Shown here piece after piece: positions 29,620-39,596 of a stretch of DNA of 64,000 bases. A model generated the notes under the pieces. That model did no database searches. It was not told where the DNA came from and worked only from the letters and a program-made list of their open reading frames with translations. Origin of the DNA: an uncultured Gammaproteobacteria bacterium (GTDB taxonomy: Bacteria > Patescibacteriota > Microgenomatia > JALYQM01); NCBI GenBank assembly GCA_964535655.1, contig CAZHTP010000004.1, forward strand, positions 139,108-203,107. The letters are read 5' to 3'. The position numbers and the translations under genes were made by a program. Position 1 is the stretch's first letter, and each line of letters begins with the position of its first letter.

Positions 29620-29693
29620 CGGGGTGTAGCTCAGTTGGTAGAGCGCGCGGATGGGGTCCGTGAGGTCGCAAGTTCGACTCTTGTCACTCCGAC
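29620..29693 (+). tRNA. tRNA-Pro (anticodon GGG)
   Basis: Hand fold: acceptor cggggtg/cactccg, D-arm gctc-agttggta-gagc, anticodon stem cgcgg/ccgtg with loop atGGGgt, T-loop ttcgact. No CCA. Confidence 0.7.
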
Positions 29694-30123
29694 AATTACA
29701 AAAGGGGCAAATTTATGGTAGCTGCACTGGAAAAAACACCGGTTTACATTTAGCCGTTTCTACGGGAAGTTTTCTCGATTTTTCGCGGGGAAAAGATATT
29801 GCCAAAGGCGCTTTAACCCGAAAACCAGAATGGGCGATTTGCACCGGAAAAATTGCTGAATCACTCAATGCGATGGTTGATGCCTATGGTTTCCGTCGGT
29901 TACGCTGGATTCATTTTTCGGCAAATACTCCGTATCCACATAGGAGAGCTCCCAGTACTTGGCTGGGAGGTTCCTTGCCGCTATCATTTGTGGTATAAGG
30001 AAACTGATCGTAAGGCGAAAGAAGCGGGCGGACAACGGGTTTGAGGAATCGAAGCCACTATGGATGGATTAATGCATGGAATAATTGAGGGTGGTAGCCG
30101 CAGCTATCCGAATCGACCAACTA

Positions 30124-32994: not shown

Positions 32995-33648
32995 TTGCTA
33001 TATACTGCGATTGATAATTCTTTTATGGCAGCACCAATCACGCATATTGCTCTTGCTGACTTGATTTTCGATACCTATTTTGAAGGTACAAGCAAGCGAC
33101 TCTTTACGATCGGTACGCTTTTCCCGAGTATTGAATATCTGCGTGTTTTATCTCGAGATCGTTCGCATTTTCATACGGTTCATTTAAAAGAACTTATTGG
33201 CATTAACGCATTTACTGCAGGATTTAAATTTCATTCGCTTGTTGATCAAGTGCGAGATGAATATTTAGAATCCCAAAAAGCGTACTATTCTTTTCCTAAG
33301 ACAAATTTATCTGTTCGAGCATTGAAATTTTTGGAAGATGAGATTTTGTATGATGAGGTAACTAACTGGGGAGAGTATTGCTCGTATTTTGGATCGATAA
33401 CTGAAGATGAAAAGCGCTTCGGTATTGAAGGCGATGAAATTATGCATTGGCATAAGGCGGTAGAGCAGTATTGCTGTAAAAAACCGACAGACGAAGTGCG
33501 CATAGATTTTGTTCAATGGTTAGGGTTTTCGCAAGAAGTTGCAGAGGAAACAAATGATGCCTTAAAAGAGATGCGCAATGACCCTGCGGTGGTGGAGATG
33601 ATTAAGGGATTGTATAAGAATTTTAAGTATTTGATAGATAGGGAATGA
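32995..33648 (+). CDS. hypothetical protein
   Basis: No confident motif (HIALADL at the N-terminus); first gene of the co-directional block leading into the DUF2726/DUF2075 genes. Confidence 0.4.
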   Translation: MLYTAIDNSFMAAPITHIALADLIFDTYFEGTSKRLFTIGTLFPSIEYLRVLSRDRSHFHTVHLKELIGINAFTAGFKFHSLVDQVRDEYLESQKAYYSFPKTNLSVRALKFLEDEILYDEVTNWGEYCSYFGSITEDEKRFGIEGDEIMHWHKAVEQYCCKKPTDEVRIDFVQWLGFSQEVAEETNDALKEMRNDPAVVEMIKGLYKNFKYLIDRE

Positions 33649-33649
33649 T

Positions 33650-33901
33650 ATGAGTGATGTAATATTATCTGAAAAAGCGAAGAGTTTGAAGTTGGGGAGA
33701 TATAGGCATTATAAGGATAAGTATTATCAAGTGATTGGGGTGGCGGTGCATAGTGAGATACAGGAAGAATTAGTGGTGTATTCGCCGGGATATGATACTC
33801 CGGTGAAATTATGGGTGCGCCCGCTGGAGATGTTTATGGGTGAGGTGGAAGTGGATGGGGTAGTGAGGAAGAGGTTTGAACTCGTGGAGGAGGAAGCCTA
33901 A
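33650..33901 (+). CDS. DUF1653-like small protein
   Basis: GRYRHYKDKYYQVIGVAVHSEIQEELVVY...LWVRPLEMF pattern recalled as DUF1653. Confidence 0.5.
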   Translation: MSDVILSEKAKSLKLGRYRHYKDKYYQVIGVAVHSEIQEELVVYSPGYDTPVKLWVRPLEMFMGEVEVDGVVRKRFELVEEEA

Positions 33902-34385
33902 TATGTATTCGTTACAGTATTTAGCGATTGCTGTCATCATAGTTTTATTTGTTGGAGTATTTCTATTTGTTACTCTTAAAAAATCTCCTCGAAAATTCAA
34001 GGCTAAAGGGCCATATTTACTGAGCATGGGAGAAACGCGTTTTTTTAATGTACTCGTCCAAGCGATTAGTAGTACTGAATATGTTTGTCCAAAAGTCAGA
34101 ATTGCGGATTTGGTGGAAGTTGATTTGCCAAAAGATGATACAGAATATTGGTCAAATTTTAATAAAATAAGTCAAAAACATGTGGACTTTGTAATTGTAA
34201 ACAGATTGGATTTTGCGCCAAAATTAATTGTTGAGCTTGATGGTGGATCACATAATAATCCAGATAGATTAGAGAGAGATGAGTTTGTGGACTCAGTGTT
34301 AAAATCAGCGAAGATACCGATTGTGCATATTGCAGTGCAGGGGAATTATTCTGTTGAGCAGTTGAAGAGTGAGTTGAAAATATAG
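33876..34385 (+). CDS. DUF2726-like PD-(D/E)xK-fold protein with N-terminal TM helix
   Basis: TM helix, then FFNVL...HVDFVIVN...KLIVELDGGSH...RDEFVDSVLKSAKIPIVHI, matching the DUF2726 / restriction-endonuclease-like core (D..ExD/K). Confidence 0.6.
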   Translation: MNSWRRKPNMYSLQYLAIAVIIVLFVGVFLFVTLKKSPRKFKAKGPYLLSMGETRFFNVLVQAISSTEYVCPKVRIADLVEVDLPKDDTEYWSNFNKISQKHVDFVIVNRLDFAPKLIVELDGGSHNNPDRLERDEFVDSVLKSAKIPIVHIAVQGNYSVEQLKSELKI

Positions 34386-34419
34386 TTATTGCAATTGTTG
34401 TTTAAAAGTATATATTTGT

Positions 34420-36291
34420 TTGATACTTATGATCCTTTATGAAGGAACGGCAAAGGAATATAGTGAAGCCGTTGATACTAATAAACTAATTGAACAGCTA
34501 GAACTCGCATTTAAACAAAAATTAGGACGAAAACTTCCTCCGAATGAAGTGGGAGCTTATAATAATTCGCTCTCTTTTATGGAACGTGTTATTAGAAGAT
34601 CTGGCGTTTCCGATGATTGTGCTATTCTGATCGAATATATTATCCCCCTTACTTCAAATAGAATTGATTTCCTCATAGCCGGAGAAGATGATTTTGGAAA
34701 TAAGAATTTTGTTATAGTTGAATTAAAGCAGTGGCAAAAAGCAAGTCCAACTGAAAGTGATGCTGTCGTAAGGACTTTCTTAAATGGTGGAGATCGTGAA
34801 ACCACTCATCCTAGTTATCAAGCAAATTCATACAAATTGTTTCTATCGGATTTTAATGAAGAAATTTCAAGTGGAAAGATAAAAGCTTCAGCTTGTGCTT
34901 ATTTACATAACTATCATAAGCATTTTCCAGAGCCTTTGGAAAATTATCCTTATGATGAAATTATCAAAGAAGCACCGATCTACTTTAGTGAGGATCAAGA
35001 AAAATTAGAGAAGTTCATTGCGAAGAATGTAAAATACGGAAAAGGAAAAGAAATCCTCTATGCTATTGAACATGGAGAAATTAAACCTACGAAGAAATTA
35101 ATAGATTATGTCTCAGATTTATTTATAGGGAATAATAAATTTATTTTTCTGGATAATCAAAAAGTAGCTTTTGAAAAGGCTCGTTCAGCTGTCAAAGATT
35201 CTAATAAAAAGACGGTGGTCATTGTTCAGGGCGGTCCTGGAACAGGGAAATCTGTTATCTCTGTAAACTTGTTGGGGCAGTTTCTTAAGGATAAATTAAA
35301 TACTTTATTCGTTGCTCCGAATGCTTCATTCAGAAATGTTCTTATTAAGACATTAGCTCGAGAATTTCCCTCTAATCGTTTGCAGAATTTATTTAAAGGT
35401 TCGAGTAGTTTTGTCGATACAGACCCGAATACATATGATGTATTAATTATTGACGAAGCTCATAGGCTAAAAGACCGTCGTGCTTATATGTACACAGGTA
35501 AGAATCAAGTGGAGGATGTAATAAAGGCGGCTCGAACAACTATTTTTTTCATAGATGATGATCAAGTTATTCGGCCCGAGGATATAGGATCAGTTAAGGA
35601 AATCAATAGAATAGCTCATGAATATGAAGCTGAAGTTTATACAATCGAACTAGAATCTCAATTTCGTTGTGCAGGAGCGGATGGTTATATTAACTGGCTT
35701 AATGATGTCTGGCAGTTGAAAATGACTGCGAATTATGATGGTTGGGAGGAAAAAGATTTCGAGTTTAGAATTTTTGATGATCCTAACGAGATGAGAAAAG
35801 CAATTAAGTCAAAACATGAACAAAATTACGATGCTCGAATTCTTGCCGGTTATGCTTGGTCTTGGACCTCTGGCGAAAAGGGTAATGCAGATGCTCAAAT
35901 TGAAGATGTTCAAATCCCAGAATTTGAATTTAGTATGCCTTGGAATTCTCGGAAAGTAGGAACTACATGGTCCGTAGATCAAGAAGGTATTGATCAAGTG
36001 GGTTGCATTCATACTTCCCAGGGTATTGATTTTGATTATGTGGGGGTAATAGTTGGTAAAGATATAACGTTTAATCAAAATTTACTCGAATTTAGCACTG
36101 AGTATAATGCCTATAAAGATTTTCAAGGTAAGCTGGGTTTGAAAGAGAAGCCCGAAGAACTTAATCTGTTAGTAAGACGCATTTATAAAATATTAATGTC
36201 TAGGCCGAGATATGGTTGTTATGTCTACTTTTGTGATCCGGCATTGAAGGAATATTTTCAGAGAAGATTAACGGGAAGTATCAGAAGATAG
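34420..36291 (+). CDS. DUF2075-like nuclease-helicase: N-terminal PD-(D/E)xK-like domain + SF1-type P-loop ATPase/helicase core
   Basis: N-terminus ILIEY..RIDFLIAGED..FVIVELKQW (E/D/ExK); Walker A VQGGPGTGKSVIS; Walker B/DEAH LIIDEAHRL; C-terminal helicase motif TSQGIDFDYVGVIV. Confidence 0.7.
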   Translation: MILMILYEGTAKEYSEAVDTNKLIEQLELAFKQKLGRKLPPNEVGAYNNSLSFMERVIRRSGVSDDCAILIEYIIPLTSNRIDFLIAGEDDFGNKNFVIVELKQWQKASPTESDAVVRTFLNGGDRETTHPSYQANSYKLFLSDFNEEISSGKIKASACAYLHNYHKHFPEPLENYPYDEIIKEAPIYFSEDQEKLEKFIAKNVKYGKGKEILYAIEHGEIKPTKKLIDYVSDLFIGNNKFIFLDNQKVAFEKARSAVKDSNKKTVVIVQGGPGTGKSVISVNLLGQFLKDKLNTLFVAPNASFRNVLIKTLAREFPSNRLQNLFKGSSSFVDTDPNTYDVLIIDEAHRLKDRRAYMYTGKNQVEDVIKAARTTIFFIDDDQVIRPEDIGSVKEINRIAHEYEAEVYTIELESQFRCAGADGYINWLNDVWQLKMTANYDGWEEKDFEFRIFDDPNEMRKAIKSKHEQNYDARILAGYAWSWTSGEKGNADAQIEDVQIPEFEFSMPWNSRKVGTTWSVDQEGIDQVGCIHTSQGIDFDYVGVIVGKDITFNQNLLEFSTEYNAYKDFQGKLGLKEKPEELNLLVRRIYKILMSRPRYGCYVYFCDPALKEYFQRRLTGSIRR

Positions 36292-36338
36292 AATAGTAAC
36301 TTCATAATTTTTACCAAAGTGCTATAATGTAGCCACAT

Positions 36339-36788
36339 ATGGCTACTTCACGTTTATATCGATCATCTGATAATAAGGTTATTGCCGGTGTGTGTGGAGG
36401 GTTAGGAGAATACTTTGATATTGACCCCATGATTATTCGTGCGCTGTTTGTTTTGGCCTTTTTTATGAGTGGAACAGGGGTTCTACTGTATATTGTTTTG
36501 TGGCTTATTATTCCTGAAAACCCTACGTATGCAACATTTTCTCGCGATAATATTCGTAATACGGTTAATGAGATGAAGGCGAAGGCGGTTGATGTGGTAG
36601 ATGAATTGCGGGGTATCAAGGAAGCGCGGACGGAAAATAGACAATCGTGGTTAGCTATTTTGATTGTGACAATCGGTGTTATGCTGTTACTGCGCAATTT
36701 TAATATGCTCGCTGTCTTTGATTTTGAACGATTATGGCCGCTCCTTTTAATTGTTGTAGGCTTTGCAATTATGTTTAAAAAGCGTTAA
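36339..36788 (+). CDS. PspC-domain membrane protein
   Basis: LYRSSDNKVIAGVCGGLGEYFDIDPMIIRALFV is a canonical PspC domain, followed by TM helices. Confidence 0.75.
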   Translation: MATSRLYRSSDNKVIAGVCGGLGEYFDIDPMIIRALFVLAFFMSGTGVLLYIVLWLIIPENPTYATFSRDNIRNTVNEMKAKAVDVVDELRGIKEARTENRQSWLAILIVTIGVMLLLRNFNMLAVFDFERLWPLLLIVVGFAIMFKKR

Positions 36789-36799
36789 GCGAACGTTCG

Positions 36800-36910
36800 C
36801 GTGATCGGATCGTCCTGTATGGTGCTGAAGCGTTATCTGCTGCGGAGCTTCGACCGGTTGTACTCAAACCGGGAGATGCGTATTCCATCGCATACTCATC
36901 CACTGGGTGA
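36800..36910 (+). pseudogene. remnant of a radC-like (UPF0758) gene: N-terminal HhH segment only
   Basis: Frame translation RDRIVLYGAEALSAAELRPVVLKPG matches the RadC N-terminus (RERLL.HGAEALSDAELLAILLRTG). No start codon; stop after 36 codons. Confidence 0.35.
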
Positions 36911-37341
36911 CTGTACCCCATCGAATGAAGATATTGAGATTACTCAGTGACTAATGGAAGTGGGACATATTTTAGGAATTGAAGTGCTTAGTATGAAAGA
37001 TCATGGAGTCGTGTAGCACTTGCAAAATACTTTTTGGCGTGTCTATCATGGATTATGATTAAAACGTTGGCACGCCATCGTCGCGAAACAATGCATAGTT
37101 ACAAACGAGCGACTATGGAACAGAAGATTATTATCTGGACCGTGTGGGCTTGGGTATTTGTCTTCTTCTGTATTATGCTGGCATTTGTTGTCGGCAAATT
37201 GTTTTACCTATACTAATATTTTTCTACGGTATATTTTCCTTCTTTAAAGAGTAGGTTAGGGCCATAAATTCTCCAGCGCAATTTTCTGCCAAACAGACAA
37301 AGAAAAACTTATCCTCTAAAATTTCGCCTGCGGCCGTACTA

Positions 37342-37626
37342 TTGGATTATGAAATACTAAATATCATTCGCGCTGGGGTAGTTTCAAACCGATTGCGGTT
37401 AGAACATAAAGATATTCTAGTAAATTTGTATCAGGATTTAGCTATTCAGACTTTACCTATTAACTACCTTGAAGTTCTGAATGTTGCACTCATTAAAAAA
37501 CTGAGCATTTATGATGCAAGTTACTTTTGGCTAGCGGATAAAATGGATATACCCTTACTAACCTTGGATGCTGCTTTAAAAAATAACTTCTGTCTTTTTT
37601 CTTTCATTGTGTTATTATCTATTCTT
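37342..37626 (+). pseudogene. PIN-domain (VapC-like) remnant, open in-frame into the downstream decarboxylase ORF
   Basis: LLDYEIL...LSIYDASYFWLADKMDIPLLTLDAALKNNF matches the C-terminal half of PIN (YDASY..., LLTLD). Only about 85 aa; TTG at the ORF start; no canonical ATG. Confidence 0.45.
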
Positions 37627-39189
37627 ATGTTTTACAGTGAATATTTGCGTGAATCGTTGGCTGGTTCGGCCTTTGCAGATGCTCTTTCGTTTGATTCTGA
37701 GGGGGAAATGTGGATGAACGGAATCTGTTTGATGGATTTAGTCCGTCGGTATGGTTCGCCCCTTGATGTTTCGGATACACGGATGTTTTCAAAACGAGGA
37801 AATTGGTGGAAAAAGTTAACTTCTCGTATCGCACAGGATGTAGGATTTTGCGGCGGTTTTGATTATTTCTATGCATCAAAAGCTAACATGTCTTTGGCAC
37901 TTACTAAAACCGCGTATAATAGTGGATGGATGGCTGAAACAAGTTCTTCCCAAGATTTGGAGCATATAAAATGGATGTATTCGCAAGGGGAGGTTGACCG
38001 GTCGTTGCGCATTATTTGTAATGGGTATAAGGTATCTGAATTTGAACAAAATACATTAGAAGAAAAAATTAAGACACAAAATATTACTCTAGCTTTGCCT
38101 CCTTCGGTTGAGAAAGAGATATTATATGCAGATAACATTCTGTTACTGCACTCTTTGGGATTTGATATCACGCCAATTTTTGATACCGACGAATTGCACT
38201 ACTTTAATCATGCACCGCTGCGTCGCGACATGAATGTTGGCTTGCGATTAAAATTTGGTAAAGTTGAGGATGATTATGATTTGTCCCACTATGTATCAAG
38301 GCATGGCATGATGTGGGAGGAATTATTGGACAATGCGGCTGTTATTGAACGAAGCGAGCACCTTGTATTGACTATGCTTCATGCGATGGTTGGGGCTGCT
38401 GAAACAATTGATGTAGATACATTTGTACAATCGTTACTTTTTGCTACTGAAAAGTATTTTCATTTAAAAAAGTTTTATCCTTCTCTTCGTTATTTAAATA
38501 TTGGAGGTGGAATTCCGCCAATTTATAGTGGATATGACTATGATACTTTTTTGCGCAAGTTCCTGAGCGGAGTTGTTGCGTTAAGTAAAAAATATTGTAT
38601 GGAAATGCCGTGCTTGGTATATGAGCTTGGTAGTTTTCTTGCCGATGATTGCGGTATGCGGATTTATAAAATATTGCAAAAAAAAGTAAACCATGTAAGC
38701 GAATCGGGGAACCCAGAGGTATGGTGTACTGTTGATGGCGGTTTGATGTCTGCTTTACCGGATATATTTATTATGAATAAGTCTTTTCAAGTCGTAGCAC
38801 TGAATAATGGAAACTCGTCTCTGTGCCAAGGGCGGCTTGGGGATTTATCCTGTGATAGTGATGGTCGTTATCCTCGCAAAGGAATGTCTCCTGACACGTT
38901 GGTGCTTCCCTTAACGGCTTTGGAAACATTTATTGGCATACTTCCTGTTGGTGCGTATCAAAAGATGCTTTCGGGGGTTGGGGGTGCACATCATTGTGGT
39001 GTGCTTGAAGCAGGTCAAGTGATTATTGAGGAAGATGCTTATGGTGTTTTGTGTGGATTTATTCCCTCGCAAACAAGTGTTGAGTACCAGCGATTACTGG
39101 GCTATTCCAAAGACGCTCATTTACCTAAGCACTCTGCCGAAATTAAGGGTCTAGTAAATTCGCTTGATAGTTCTATAATTTCTTCATGA
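37627..39189 (+). CDS. PLP-dependent Orn/DAP/Arg decarboxylase (fold III), biosynthetic arginine decarboxylase (SpeA)-like
   Basis: PLP-lysine region FYASKAN; GWMAETSSSQDLE (compare GLEAGSKPEL of SpeA); the ORF is open from 37342, and the ATG at 37627 is the preferred start. Confidence 0.6.
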   Translation: MFYSEYLRESLAGSAFADALSFDSEGEMWMNGICLMDLVRRYGSPLDVSDTRMFSKRGNWWKKLTSRIAQDVGFCGGFDYFYASKANMSLALTKTAYNSGWMAETSSSQDLEHIKWMYSQGEVDRSLRIICNGYKVSEFEQNTLEEKIKTQNITLALPPSVEKEILYADNILLLHSLGFDITPIFDTDELHYFNHAPLRRDMNVGLRLKFGKVEDDYDLSHYVSRHGMMWEELLDNAAVIERSEHLVLTMLHAMVGAAETIDVDTFVQSLLFATEKYFHLKKFYPSLRYLNIGGGIPPIYSGYDYDTFLRKFLSGVVALSKKYCMEMPCLVYELGSFLADDCGMRIYKILQKKVNHVSESGNPEVWCTVDGGLMSALPDIFIMNKSFQVVALNNGNSSLCQGRLGDLSCDSDGRYPRKGMSPDTLVLPLTALETFIGILPVGAYQKMLSGVGGAHHCGVLEAGQVIIEEDAYGVLCGFIPSQTSVEYQRLLGYSKDAHLPKHSAEIKGLVNSLDSSIISS

Positions 39190-39596
39190 ACCCTTCCTTG
39201 TTTGAACCAAGAAAAGTTGTTTTTGCTGCTATGAGTAAAAAAAGCTTTTACTTGCGCGAACATATTATTAAATATGTGTTAGAGCAGGGTTTTACGCCAA
39301 TGTGTGCGTTTATGATGTTTTCCTACTTTTTGCTGGACACTGTTGATCGGTTTTCTTTGATCCAATCCAATAATGAGCTGATCCGAAGAAGCGATGAATT
39401 GTGGGTGTTTGGACCGATTTCTGATGGTGTAGCGGCAGAAATTGCTTTTGCCAAGGAGTTAAAGCAGCCGATTAAGTTCTTTACCCCTAACCGAGATAAC
39501 ACCTTATTTACGGAAATATCTCAGGAAAAAGTAGAGTACGAACCTTTTTCTGAGCCTGTTTCGTTGTCAGTATCGACAAAAATGGGCGTAGTGTAA
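39186..39596 (+). CDS. nucleoside 2-deoxyribosyltransferase-like protein (tentative)
   Basis: C-terminal GVAAEIAFAKELKQPIKFF resembles the E.G.A...gKPV motif of the family; weak. Confidence 0.3.
   Translation: MNPSLFEPRKVVFAAMSKKSFYLREHIIKYVLEQGFTPMCAFMMFSYFLLDTVDRFSLIQSNNELIRRSDELWVFGPISDGVAAEIAFAKELKQPIKFFTPNRDNTLFTEISQEKVEYEPFSEPVSLSVSTKMGVV

Follow-up and report, generated by a model that had tools for sequence, protein, structure and literature searches.

The window, by which we mean the whole stretch of 64,000 nucleotides that was analysed, contains four co-directional ORFs on the plus strand: ORF1, a DUF1653 gene, a gene for a transmembrane (TM) DUF2726 protein, and a nuclease-DUF2075 gene. 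The features of this locus are as follows.

33025..33648, plus strand: ORF1, 207 aa, all-alpha, conserved His and Asp residues, distantly resembling zinc phospholipase C
33650..33901, plus strand: DUF1653 gene, 83 aa (PF07866, 84.7 bits)
33862..36316, no strand: lineage-specific indel of 2.45 kb, containing the DUF2726 and DUF2075 genes only
33903..34385, plus strand: membrane-anchored DUF2726 protein, 160 aa (PF10881, 100.1 bits)
34389..34416, plus strand: promoter-like site TTGCAA-16-TATATT, in the 43-nt gap 5′ of the DUF2075 gene
34429..36291, plus strand: predicted nuclease-helicase, 620 aa (PF09848, 310.5 bits)
36339..36788, plus strand: PspC/LiaF-like membrane protein (PF04024, 94.6 bits)

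The original prediction described a candidate defence locus of four genes lying between a secreted-enzyme block and a PspC gene. As a description of the layout this is accurate, with alginate lyase and PAP2 genes on the minus strand upstream and the PspC gene downstream, and the starts of three of the four genes were revised. ORF1 begins with ATG at 33025 instead of TTG at 32995, and the DUF2726 gene with ATG at 33903 instead of TTG at 33876; the former codon lies behind GGAGGAGG, one base past the DUF1653 stop. The start of the DUF2075 gene was refined to the ATG at 34429, giving a product identical to a database protein of 620 residues (P0001). Single nucleotides separate ORF1, DUF1653 and DUF2726 from one another, and 43 nt separate DUF2726 from DUF2075. 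The promoter-like site in the latter gap matches the consensus at 9 of 12 positions in a consensus scan, a score that is not significant alone, and the scan for promoters and terminators does not decide whether the two genes are co-transcribed. A conserved sequence, GTGCTATAAT, is located 5′ of the PspC gene at approximately 36320-36329.

A related CPR genome (locus L174) has alginate lyase, ORF1, DUF1653 and PspC in the same arrangement at the corresponding site but neither the DUF2726 nor the DUF2075 gene, and we therefore regard the 2.45 kb as a lineage-specific indel. In blastn comparisons L174 5001-5841 aligns to window positions 33025-33861 and L174 5871-6344 to 36317-36790, such that this genome carries just 29 bp in place of the segment. 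DUF1653 lies directly upstream of PspC in L174 and L175. ORF1 and DUF1653 belong, along with PspC, to the chromosomal backbone outside the insertion, while DUF2726 and DUF2075 make up an accessory segment between DUF1653 and PspC. The proposal of one four-gene defence locus does not survive this comparison, ORF1 and DUF1653 being syntenic with PspC in a genome that has neither of the other two genes. The original prediction had also allowed that the genes might be housekeeping functions conserved at syntenic core positions; since the nuclease-helicase gene is missing from the syntenic site of the relative, this does not apply to it. The segment is kept in a second sample of the window's own lineage (L168) at 92.5% nucleotide identity.

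The base composition, which had been proposed as a check, was compared with that of the window. The GC contents of the DUF2726 and DUF2075 genes are 0.353 and 0.352, about 1.6 sd under the window mean of 0.393 (sd 0.026); the segment as a whole (approximately 33862-36316) has a GC content of 0.35 versus 0.39. The GC3 of the DUF1653 gene is 0.53. A search of the indel boundaries revealed neither flanking repeats nor att-like sites, and an 18-nt pair at 34375/36368, which lies off these boundaries, was taken as chance. A prophage origin was dropped because viral contigs contain few members of either family, namely 2-3 full-length relatives of DUF2075 and 16 of DUF2726. The segment illustrates well how a small accessory "islet" with defined boundaries can occur in a reduced CPR genome. 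Its surroundings are housekeeping in nature: the 20 kb on either side encode phosphofructokinase (PFK), a UvrD/PcrA helicase, MurJ, LepA, RNase Y and LDH, among others, with no defence island, and the sole PADLOC matches in this interval come from the UvrD-type helicase.

All four genes might instead form an operon for nucleic acid degradation and salvage in a CPR bacterium unable to make nucleotides, with a PLC/P1-nuclease-like ORF1, a membrane nuclease and the nuclease-helicase as its components. The source is indeed a CPR organism, the first three genes are closely packed, and hydrolase- or nuclease-like features occur in three of the four proteins. We nevertheless hold this to be very improbable, as the relative has ORF1 and DUF1653 without the other two genes, no two of the four families co-occur elsewhere, and the DUF2075 family reaches well past the CPR. 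The likeness of ORF1 to PLC is, moreover, weak, and at the nearly invariant Asp35 position the window copy carries Ser. DUF1653 is a secure assignment (84.7 bits against a gathering cut-off of 23.5), and its homologues in other genomes have unrelated neighbours. Neither ORF1 nor DUF1653 was found near any of the 98 DUF2075-family and 100 DUF2726 loci searched. ORF1 and a 235-aa gene found upstream of the MazG-like gene in relatives were also considered as possible shared components; they are unrelated, the 235-aa gene encoding an HNH protein that is missing from the window.

The DUF2726 protein matches PF10881 with 100.1 bits (cut-off 24.7) and DUF559 weakly. It possesses an N-terminal TM helix, LAIAVIIVLFVGVFLFVTL (33921-33977), and a Vsr/DUF559-type PD-(D/E)xK core with HVDF at 34179-34190 and ELDGGSH at 34233-34253. 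The family keeps D95, E111, D113, S116 and H117 without exception, and DUF2726 has been classed as PD-(D/E)xK (Steczkiewicz et al. 2012, PMC3424549). The D...ExD..SH signature is shared with the Vsr/DUF559/DUF2726 group; the 160-aa protein differs in carrying a TM anchor at its N-terminus and in lacking a mismatch-repair context. The single N-terminal helix is predicted to tether the protein's nuclease-fold domain on the cytoplasmic side. Such a tether had been thought unusual, and yet 33 of the 34 members of this DUF2726 subfamily have a TM helix.

The 620-aa product of the DUF2075 gene covers the whole of PF09848 (formerly DUF2075, now SLFN-g3_helicase; profile positions 1-354 of 354), scoring 310.5 bits where the cut-off is 24. 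All three Pfam assignments of the original prediction (DUF1653, DUF2726 and DUF2075) thus score over their cut-offs, and every motif that it quoted is present. In the N-terminal domain these are E69 (34633-34635), D80 (34666-34668) and ELK (E98-L-K100; 34720-34728); residues E69, D80, E98 and K100 are invariant both in 25 and in 39 diverse homologues. The helicase motifs comprise GGPGTGKS (Walker A; 35230-35253) and DEAH (35452-35463), both invariant across the DUF2075 family, as well as a C-terminal motif, QGIDFDYVGVIV, at 36019-36054.

The AlphaFold2 model of the N-terminal domain is of high confidence, with the order helix-strand-strand-strand-helix-strand, and E69, D80 and E98-x-K100 fall on its first three strands; the model is poor in the C-terminal half of the protein. 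The top Foldseek matches of the helicase core are SLFN11, Dda, RecD2 and Dna2. With the full-length model Foldseek returns helicase and P-loop matches only, which thereby do not probe the nuclease domain. The latter domain has no significant match by sequence in Pfam or the PDB, and no useful match came from PDB sequence searches, whether the query was the full-length protein, the profile of the family or of the N-terminal domain, or the DUF2726 profile. Two homologues of the nuclease-helicase yielded weak NERD matches. An hhalign comparison of the N-terminal domain with DUF2726 places RIDF/VELK in register with HVDF/VELD, at a probability of just 12%. We infer from the motifs and the fold that the protein combines an N-terminal PD-(D/E)xK-type nuclease with an SF1B-like DUF2075 (Schlafen-group-3) helicase.

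The DUF2075 family is large, strongly conserved and horizontally spread. It ranges over the CPR, Bacillota, Bacteroidota, Pseudomonadota, archaea and plasmids. Relatives that match over their full length, at 39-70% identity, come from CPR, Paenibacillus, Bacillaceae, Halomonas, Bacteroidales, Clostridia and archaea, as well as from plasmids, with bacterial and archaeal members still approximately 40% identical. The usual partner, not present in this window, is a MazG-like gene, which adjoins about 54 of 80 loci and went undetected in 24 of the 80 fetched loci, in both cases among the matches listed. About one third of the members end in a LexA-like S24 peptidase domain, and genes for nucleotide sanitation, MazG-like and NUDIX, often lie nearby. 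In other genomes the surrounding genes vary, with many for restriction, Abi and toxin-antitoxin functions, including Type IV and Type I restriction, PLD nucleases, AbiEi and McrB; a Priestia plasmid island is one example of such a defence context. Genes next to DUF2075 loci gave matches to 265 PADLOC models, several of these being matched 3-4 times, and genes next to DUF2726 loci to 62 models, once each. In the literature searched we found neither a description of the MazG-like/DUF2075 pairing nor a tested member of this DUF2075 family.

The degree of conservation in the family is unusually high for a defence gene, which speaks against a defence reading, and the S24/LexA-like and MazG/NUDIX links could point to DNA-damage biology. 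The DUF2075 protein might therefore be a nuclease-helicase for repair under DNA damage or replication stress, like Dna2 or AddAB, with no role in immunity. This would agree with the presence of Dna2 and RecD2 among the structural matches and with the housekeeping genes that surround the locus. A repair enzyme would, however, be expected at conserved positions across most of a clade, and this gene is missing at the syntenic site of a related genome, is patchily distributed over phyla and plasmids, and keeps the variable, defence-rich company noted above. On this evidence a repair function seems unlikely.

We next consider the suggestion that DUF2726 and DUF2075 recur as a pair. Profile HMM searches over the 98 DUF2075-family and 100 DUF2726 loci, about 200 in all, found the two together only in L001 and L168, both of the window's own lineage. 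Of the 96 outside DUF2075 loci, 87 include at least 1 kb of upstream sequence, where the MazG-like gene is usually situated, and 41 DUF2726 loci include at least 2 kb of downstream sequence. Two long ORFs resembling fusions with DUF2726 were discarded, one (L156) as an antisense artefact of ORF calling and the other (L149) having no PDB match. The DUF2726 gene is probably an independent passenger, drawn from a separate, widespread and stand-alone family, rather than an obligate partner of the nuclease-helicase. The two genes may have been acquired as a unit, because they share one indel and are nearly identical in GC content.

Joint acquisition might go together with a new two-gene system, in which the membrane-tethered DUF2726 protein replaces the MazG-like partner, acting for instance as sensor or effector where phage DNA enters the cell. 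The genes constitute one clean indel, are co-directional and only 43 nt apart, scarcely differ in GC content, and are retained jointly in the second sample; moreover, DUF2726 sits where relatives have the MazG-like gene. Against this, the pair was not found beyond the window's own lineage in the 98 and 100 loci searched, every one of the nearest helicase homologues from outside that lineage (65-70% identity) is instead preceded by a MazG-like gene, and the closest DUF2726 relatives lie among unrelated neighbours. The frequent lack of a detectable MazG-like gene in the DUF2075 family and the promoter-like site between the two genes also count against a fixed two-component arrangement, and we find it improbable. 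Its corollary, that the MazG-like gene and the nuclease-DUF2075 gene (with or without the S24 peptidase, with or without HNH) form an undescribed widespread defence system of which the window holds a variant, is improbable to the same degree.

The fusion of a nuclease to DUF2075 was rightly recognised as an anti-phage type of architecture, and it has already been named. Nhi of Staphylococcus epidermidis (SERP2475) has the single-polypeptide organisation predicted for the window protein, in which an SF1B-like helicase overlapping DUF2075 comes after an N-terminal nuclease of the PD-(D/E)xK type; it needs both its nuclease and its helicase residues and limits the accumulation of phage DNA (Bari et al., bioRxiv 10.1101/776245). 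Both Nhi and the family in the window are horizontally spread, occur on plasmids and lie near other defence genes. [quoted passage not shown] PF09848 also appears on Pfam lists of Abi and defence families (PMC10121019).

The PADLOC comparison, which had been proposed as a check, gave partial matches to Nhi, AbiO and PDC-S41 and no full-length match to the Nhi profile of the Bari et al. family. The Nhi model (PDLC02372) aligns residues 254-482 with model positions 190-389 of 470 (51.8 bits, E 1.3e-14), which is the first helicase half only, about 42% of the model, with no detectable similarity at the N-terminus. As these matches are partial, membership in Nhi proper is not established. The window protein also differs from Nhi in having no C-terminal glyoxalase/bleomycin-resistance-like domain, and its family has partners of its own, the MazG-like gene and the S24 fusions. 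PDC-S41 (a model of 657 positions) matches residues 10-317, from the nuclease domain through Walker A, with 41.5 bits, and AbiO the helicase core, again only its first half, with 49.4 bits; these alignments are partial and low-scoring, and neither name is warranted for the protein. The Schlafen group 3 proteins SLFN11, SLFN5, SLFN13 and SLFN14 have PF09848 in common with it, and SLFN11 is its top structural match; these are eukaryotic proteins with a Schlafen RNase core at the N-terminus, whereas the window protein is prokaryotic and carries a predicted PD-(D/E)xK core there.

We consider it fairly likely that the locus consists of a chromosomal backbone interrupted by an accessory segment, which carries a stand-alone nuclease-helicase of the Nhi type together with DUF2726 as a passenger. 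The 620-aa protein is itself probably a stand-alone defence enzyme, to judge from its invariant E/D/ExK residues, the partial PADLOC matches, its accessory status and the neighbours of its relatives. In this respect the proposed defence role remains probable, and the four-gene system is not supported: the locus is reduced to one plausible single-gene defence enzyme and a passenger, and is better not counted as a new system. The nuclease-helicase would act alone, its helicase motor loading onto and unwinding foreign or replicating DNA at the expense of ATP and its nuclease domain cutting the unwound DNA, such that less phage or plasmid DNA would accumulate. Here it would function without the MazG-like NTP pyrophosphohydrolase and the S24 domain that many of its relatives possess. 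Beyond the window, a more useful lead is offered by the large and very conserved DUF2075 family with its usual MazG-like companion, where this coupling and the frequent fusion to LexA-type S24 domains hint at regulation by DNA damage or nucleotide pools.

The flagged region contains four co-directional genes, all on the + strand; three start codons were refined by reading the DNA and by matching to database gene calls.

Genes of the flagged region
33025-33648, + strand: ORF1, 207 aa
33650-33901, + strand: DUF1653 gene, 83 aa; DUF1653 domain, 84.7 bits
33903-34385, + strand: TM-DUF2726 protein, 160 aa; DUF2726 domain, 100.1 bits
34429-36291, + strand: nuclease-helicase, 620 aa; PF09848 (the old DUF2075, currently named "Schlafen group 3 helicase"), 310.5 bits

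The three domains named in the original prediction (DUF1653, DUF2726 and DUF2075) are all well over their Pfam thresholds, and the motifs that it quoted were all located in the sequence. The ATG of the TM-DUF2726 gene lies one base past the DUF1653 stop codon and is preceded by GGAGGAGG, and the nuclease-helicase read from 34429-36291 is identical to a database protein (P0001). The best outside matches are proteins of Gottesmanbacteria, Saccharibacteria, Parcubacteria and Woesebacteria; the source organism is a Candidate Phyla Radiation (CPR) bacterium.

The four genes had been taken to form one candidate defence locus, and synteny is decisive against this. In the related genome GCA_964403585.1 (L174), ORF1 is 74% identical to that of the window; one strand carries FemAB, PAP2 and alginate lyase in this order and the opposite strand ORF1, DUF1653 and PspC, and the DUF2726 and DUF2075 genes are absent from this site. 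At the DNA level L174 5001-5841 aligns to window 33025-33861 and L174 5871-6344 to window 36317-36790, and GTGCTATAAT is conserved upstream of PspC in both; window positions ~33862-36316 therefore represent a 2.45-kb indel, which holds exactly the DUF2726 and DUF2075 genes. The GC content of these two genes is 0.353 and 0.352, versus a mean of 0.393 (sd 0.026) for the genes of the window, and no flanking repeats were found at the indel boundaries. A contig from another sample (L168; 92.5% nucleotide identity) retains DUF1653-DUF2726-DUF2075, which shows that within this narrow lineage the insertion is fixed. ORF1 and DUF1653 belong to the backbone, and DUF1653 homologues elsewhere have unrelated neighbours, such as topA in Halopseudomonas. 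That all four genes make up a salvage operon is thus highly improbable. What we consider probable is a Nhi-like nuclease-helicase that stands alone and came in on the 2.45-kb insertion alongside a membrane-anchored DUF2726 gene to which it is unrelated.

No gene of the window deviates more in codon usage than the DUF1653 gene (GC3 0.53; window mean 0.31). Most of its homologues come from Pseudomonadota, where they lie just upstream of topA. Gene content also differs 3′ of PspC, where window 36791-39196 carries a PLP-decarboxylase-like gene and L174:6345-10185 carries RadC, NUDIX and Wzy-like genes, synteny picking up again at a DUF7768 gene. The neighbourhood is a variable spot.

ORF1 is a real, conserved gene without a tie to the other three. 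It belongs to an unannotated family (641 clusters) of ~205-aa all-alpha proteins with invariant residues H7, H48, H70 and D74; in the window protein Ser, Glu and Ser replace the nearly invariant Asp35, Arg37 and Thr47. The model is very confident (pLDDT 96.6) and gave no Foldseek match in the PDB. Weak matches to zinc phospholipase C in 27 of 46 family members hint at a relationship with that enzyme.

Pairing of the two inserted genes was assessed by tblastn, and by searching every six-frame ORF with profile HMMs, in 80 genome loci of the helicase family and 80 metagenome loci of the DUF2726 subfamily, plus viral, plasmid and look-up loci. Among 98 helicase-family and 100 DUF2726 loci the two occur together only in L001 and L168, both of the window's own lineage, and so do not form a recurring pair. 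Flanks extended at least 1 kb upstream in 87/96 outside helicase loci, and at least 2 kb downstream in 41 DUF2726 loci. The DUF2726 neighbours are heterogeneous and mainly housekeeping genes. A genuine two-gene DUF2726-DUF2075 system is in our judgement unlikely. DUF2726 is an established PD-(D/E)xK group, placed with Vsr and DUF559 (PMC3424549). The membrane tether had been called unusual, yet 33 of 34 subfamily members have an N-terminal TM helix, which makes such a tether the norm. Fusions to topoisomerase-I zinc ribbons (PF01396) occur in some DUF2726 relatives.

The helicase family is large (>7,800 clusters scored; at least 542 genome loci) and strikingly conserved along its whole length: CPR members are 58-70% identical to one another, and for proteins of Paenibacillus, Bacillaceae, Halomonas, Bacteroidales, Clostridia, Methanobacteriaceae and Woesearchaeota the identity is 39-54%. 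Plasmids of bacteria and archaea carry members too. In two Gracilibacteria loci (L005, L006), in-frame TGA codons (genetic code 25) make table-11 ORF calls and translations unreliable. Among the invariant features are E69, D80, E98-L-K100-Q-W, the Walker A motif GGPGTGKS and DEAH. Residues 1-230 of the AlphaFold2 model are confident. A helix is followed there by three strands, which bear E69, D80 and ExK, and then by a second helix and a further strand, the canonical PD-(D/E)xK layout. SLFN11, Dda, RecD2 and Dna2 are structural matches of the helicase core. The nuclease fold has weak direct statistical support: NERD matched in two homologues (E 0.006-0.03), the PADLOC model PDC-S41 matched residues 10-317, hhalign with DUF2726 set the nuclease motifs in register at a probability of only 12%, and a PDB sequence search for the fold gave no match.

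Nhi and Nhi-like proteins consist of a nuclease domain followed by DUF2075, the architecture seen here. In Nhi both nuclease and helicase residues are required, and phage DNA accumulation is limited (10.1101/776245); Nhi-like took its name from this domain organisation alone (10.1101/2022.05.11.491447). PF09848 is already in use as an Abi/defence marker (PMC10121019), and an earlier paper noted DUF2075 genes beside Type IV enzymes (PMC6765204). The PADLOC Nhi and AbiO models match just part of the window helicase; the protein resembles Nhi in build rather than being a demonstrated member of the Nhi sequence family. We surmise that the predicted nuclease-helicase, built like Nhi, would also work like it. 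A defence role is reasonable for this one gene; neither the four-gene locus nor the gene pair is supported.

Many other members of the family have partners that the window protein lacks.

Partners and fused domains in the helicase family
MazG-like gene beside nuclease-DUF2075: L167:6612-7004, L205:5648-5998, L002:7738-8004, L005:7643-7999; ~50 more loci among L007-L086
S24-bearing member: L008:6001-8277, S24 at residues 638-747; others in L026, L028, L049
~235-aa HNH protein: L167:5950-6654, L205:4930-5640, L007:7833-8549, L008:8247-8965; L002:13056-13841 (minus strand)

A MazG-like gene (PF12643; NTP pyrophosphohydrolase type) adjoins the helicase gene in ~54/80 loci across many phyla, either just downstream or immediately upstream, then frequently with a 4-nt overlap. 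Every close outside homologue looked up has this partner, of which we found no description in the literature. A search of the window revealed no MazG-like gene, and the window resembles the 24/80 loci where none was detected. In CPR loci the pair is often linked to a ~235-aa protein that carries an HNH motif at its C terminus (78% identity between two loci), possibly a restriction-type partner. Roughly a third of the family has a Peptidase_S24 (LexA-like) domain at the C terminus, suggestive of regulation through self-cleavage of the RecA/DNA-damage type; this domain is missing from the window protein. For the DUF2075 protein a role in DNA-damage repair seems unlikely. The remaining neighbours vary and are rich in Type IV/Type I restriction, PLD nucleases, AbiEi, McrB-type ATPases and toxin-antitoxin pairs. 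Taken as a whole, neighbours of helicase loci matched 265 PADLOC models, several 3-4 times, versus 62, once each, for DUF2726 neighbours, a rough control that is qualitative only because the two locus sets differ in origin.

Within the window the nuclease-helicase stands in an isolated islet. A defence island was rejected: the genes within 20 kb on either side are housekeeping (PFK, UvrD/PcrA helicase, MurJ, TatD, LepA, LDH, RNase Y, pol III delta), and the only PADLOC matches there come from the UvrD-type helicase. A 430-nt non-coding stretch (29694-30123; GC ~0.47) lies 3′ of tRNA-Pro(GGG) (29620-29693); it has no Rfam match and no blastn match in L174, and its + strand folds somewhat better than shuffled sequences (z = -1.98).
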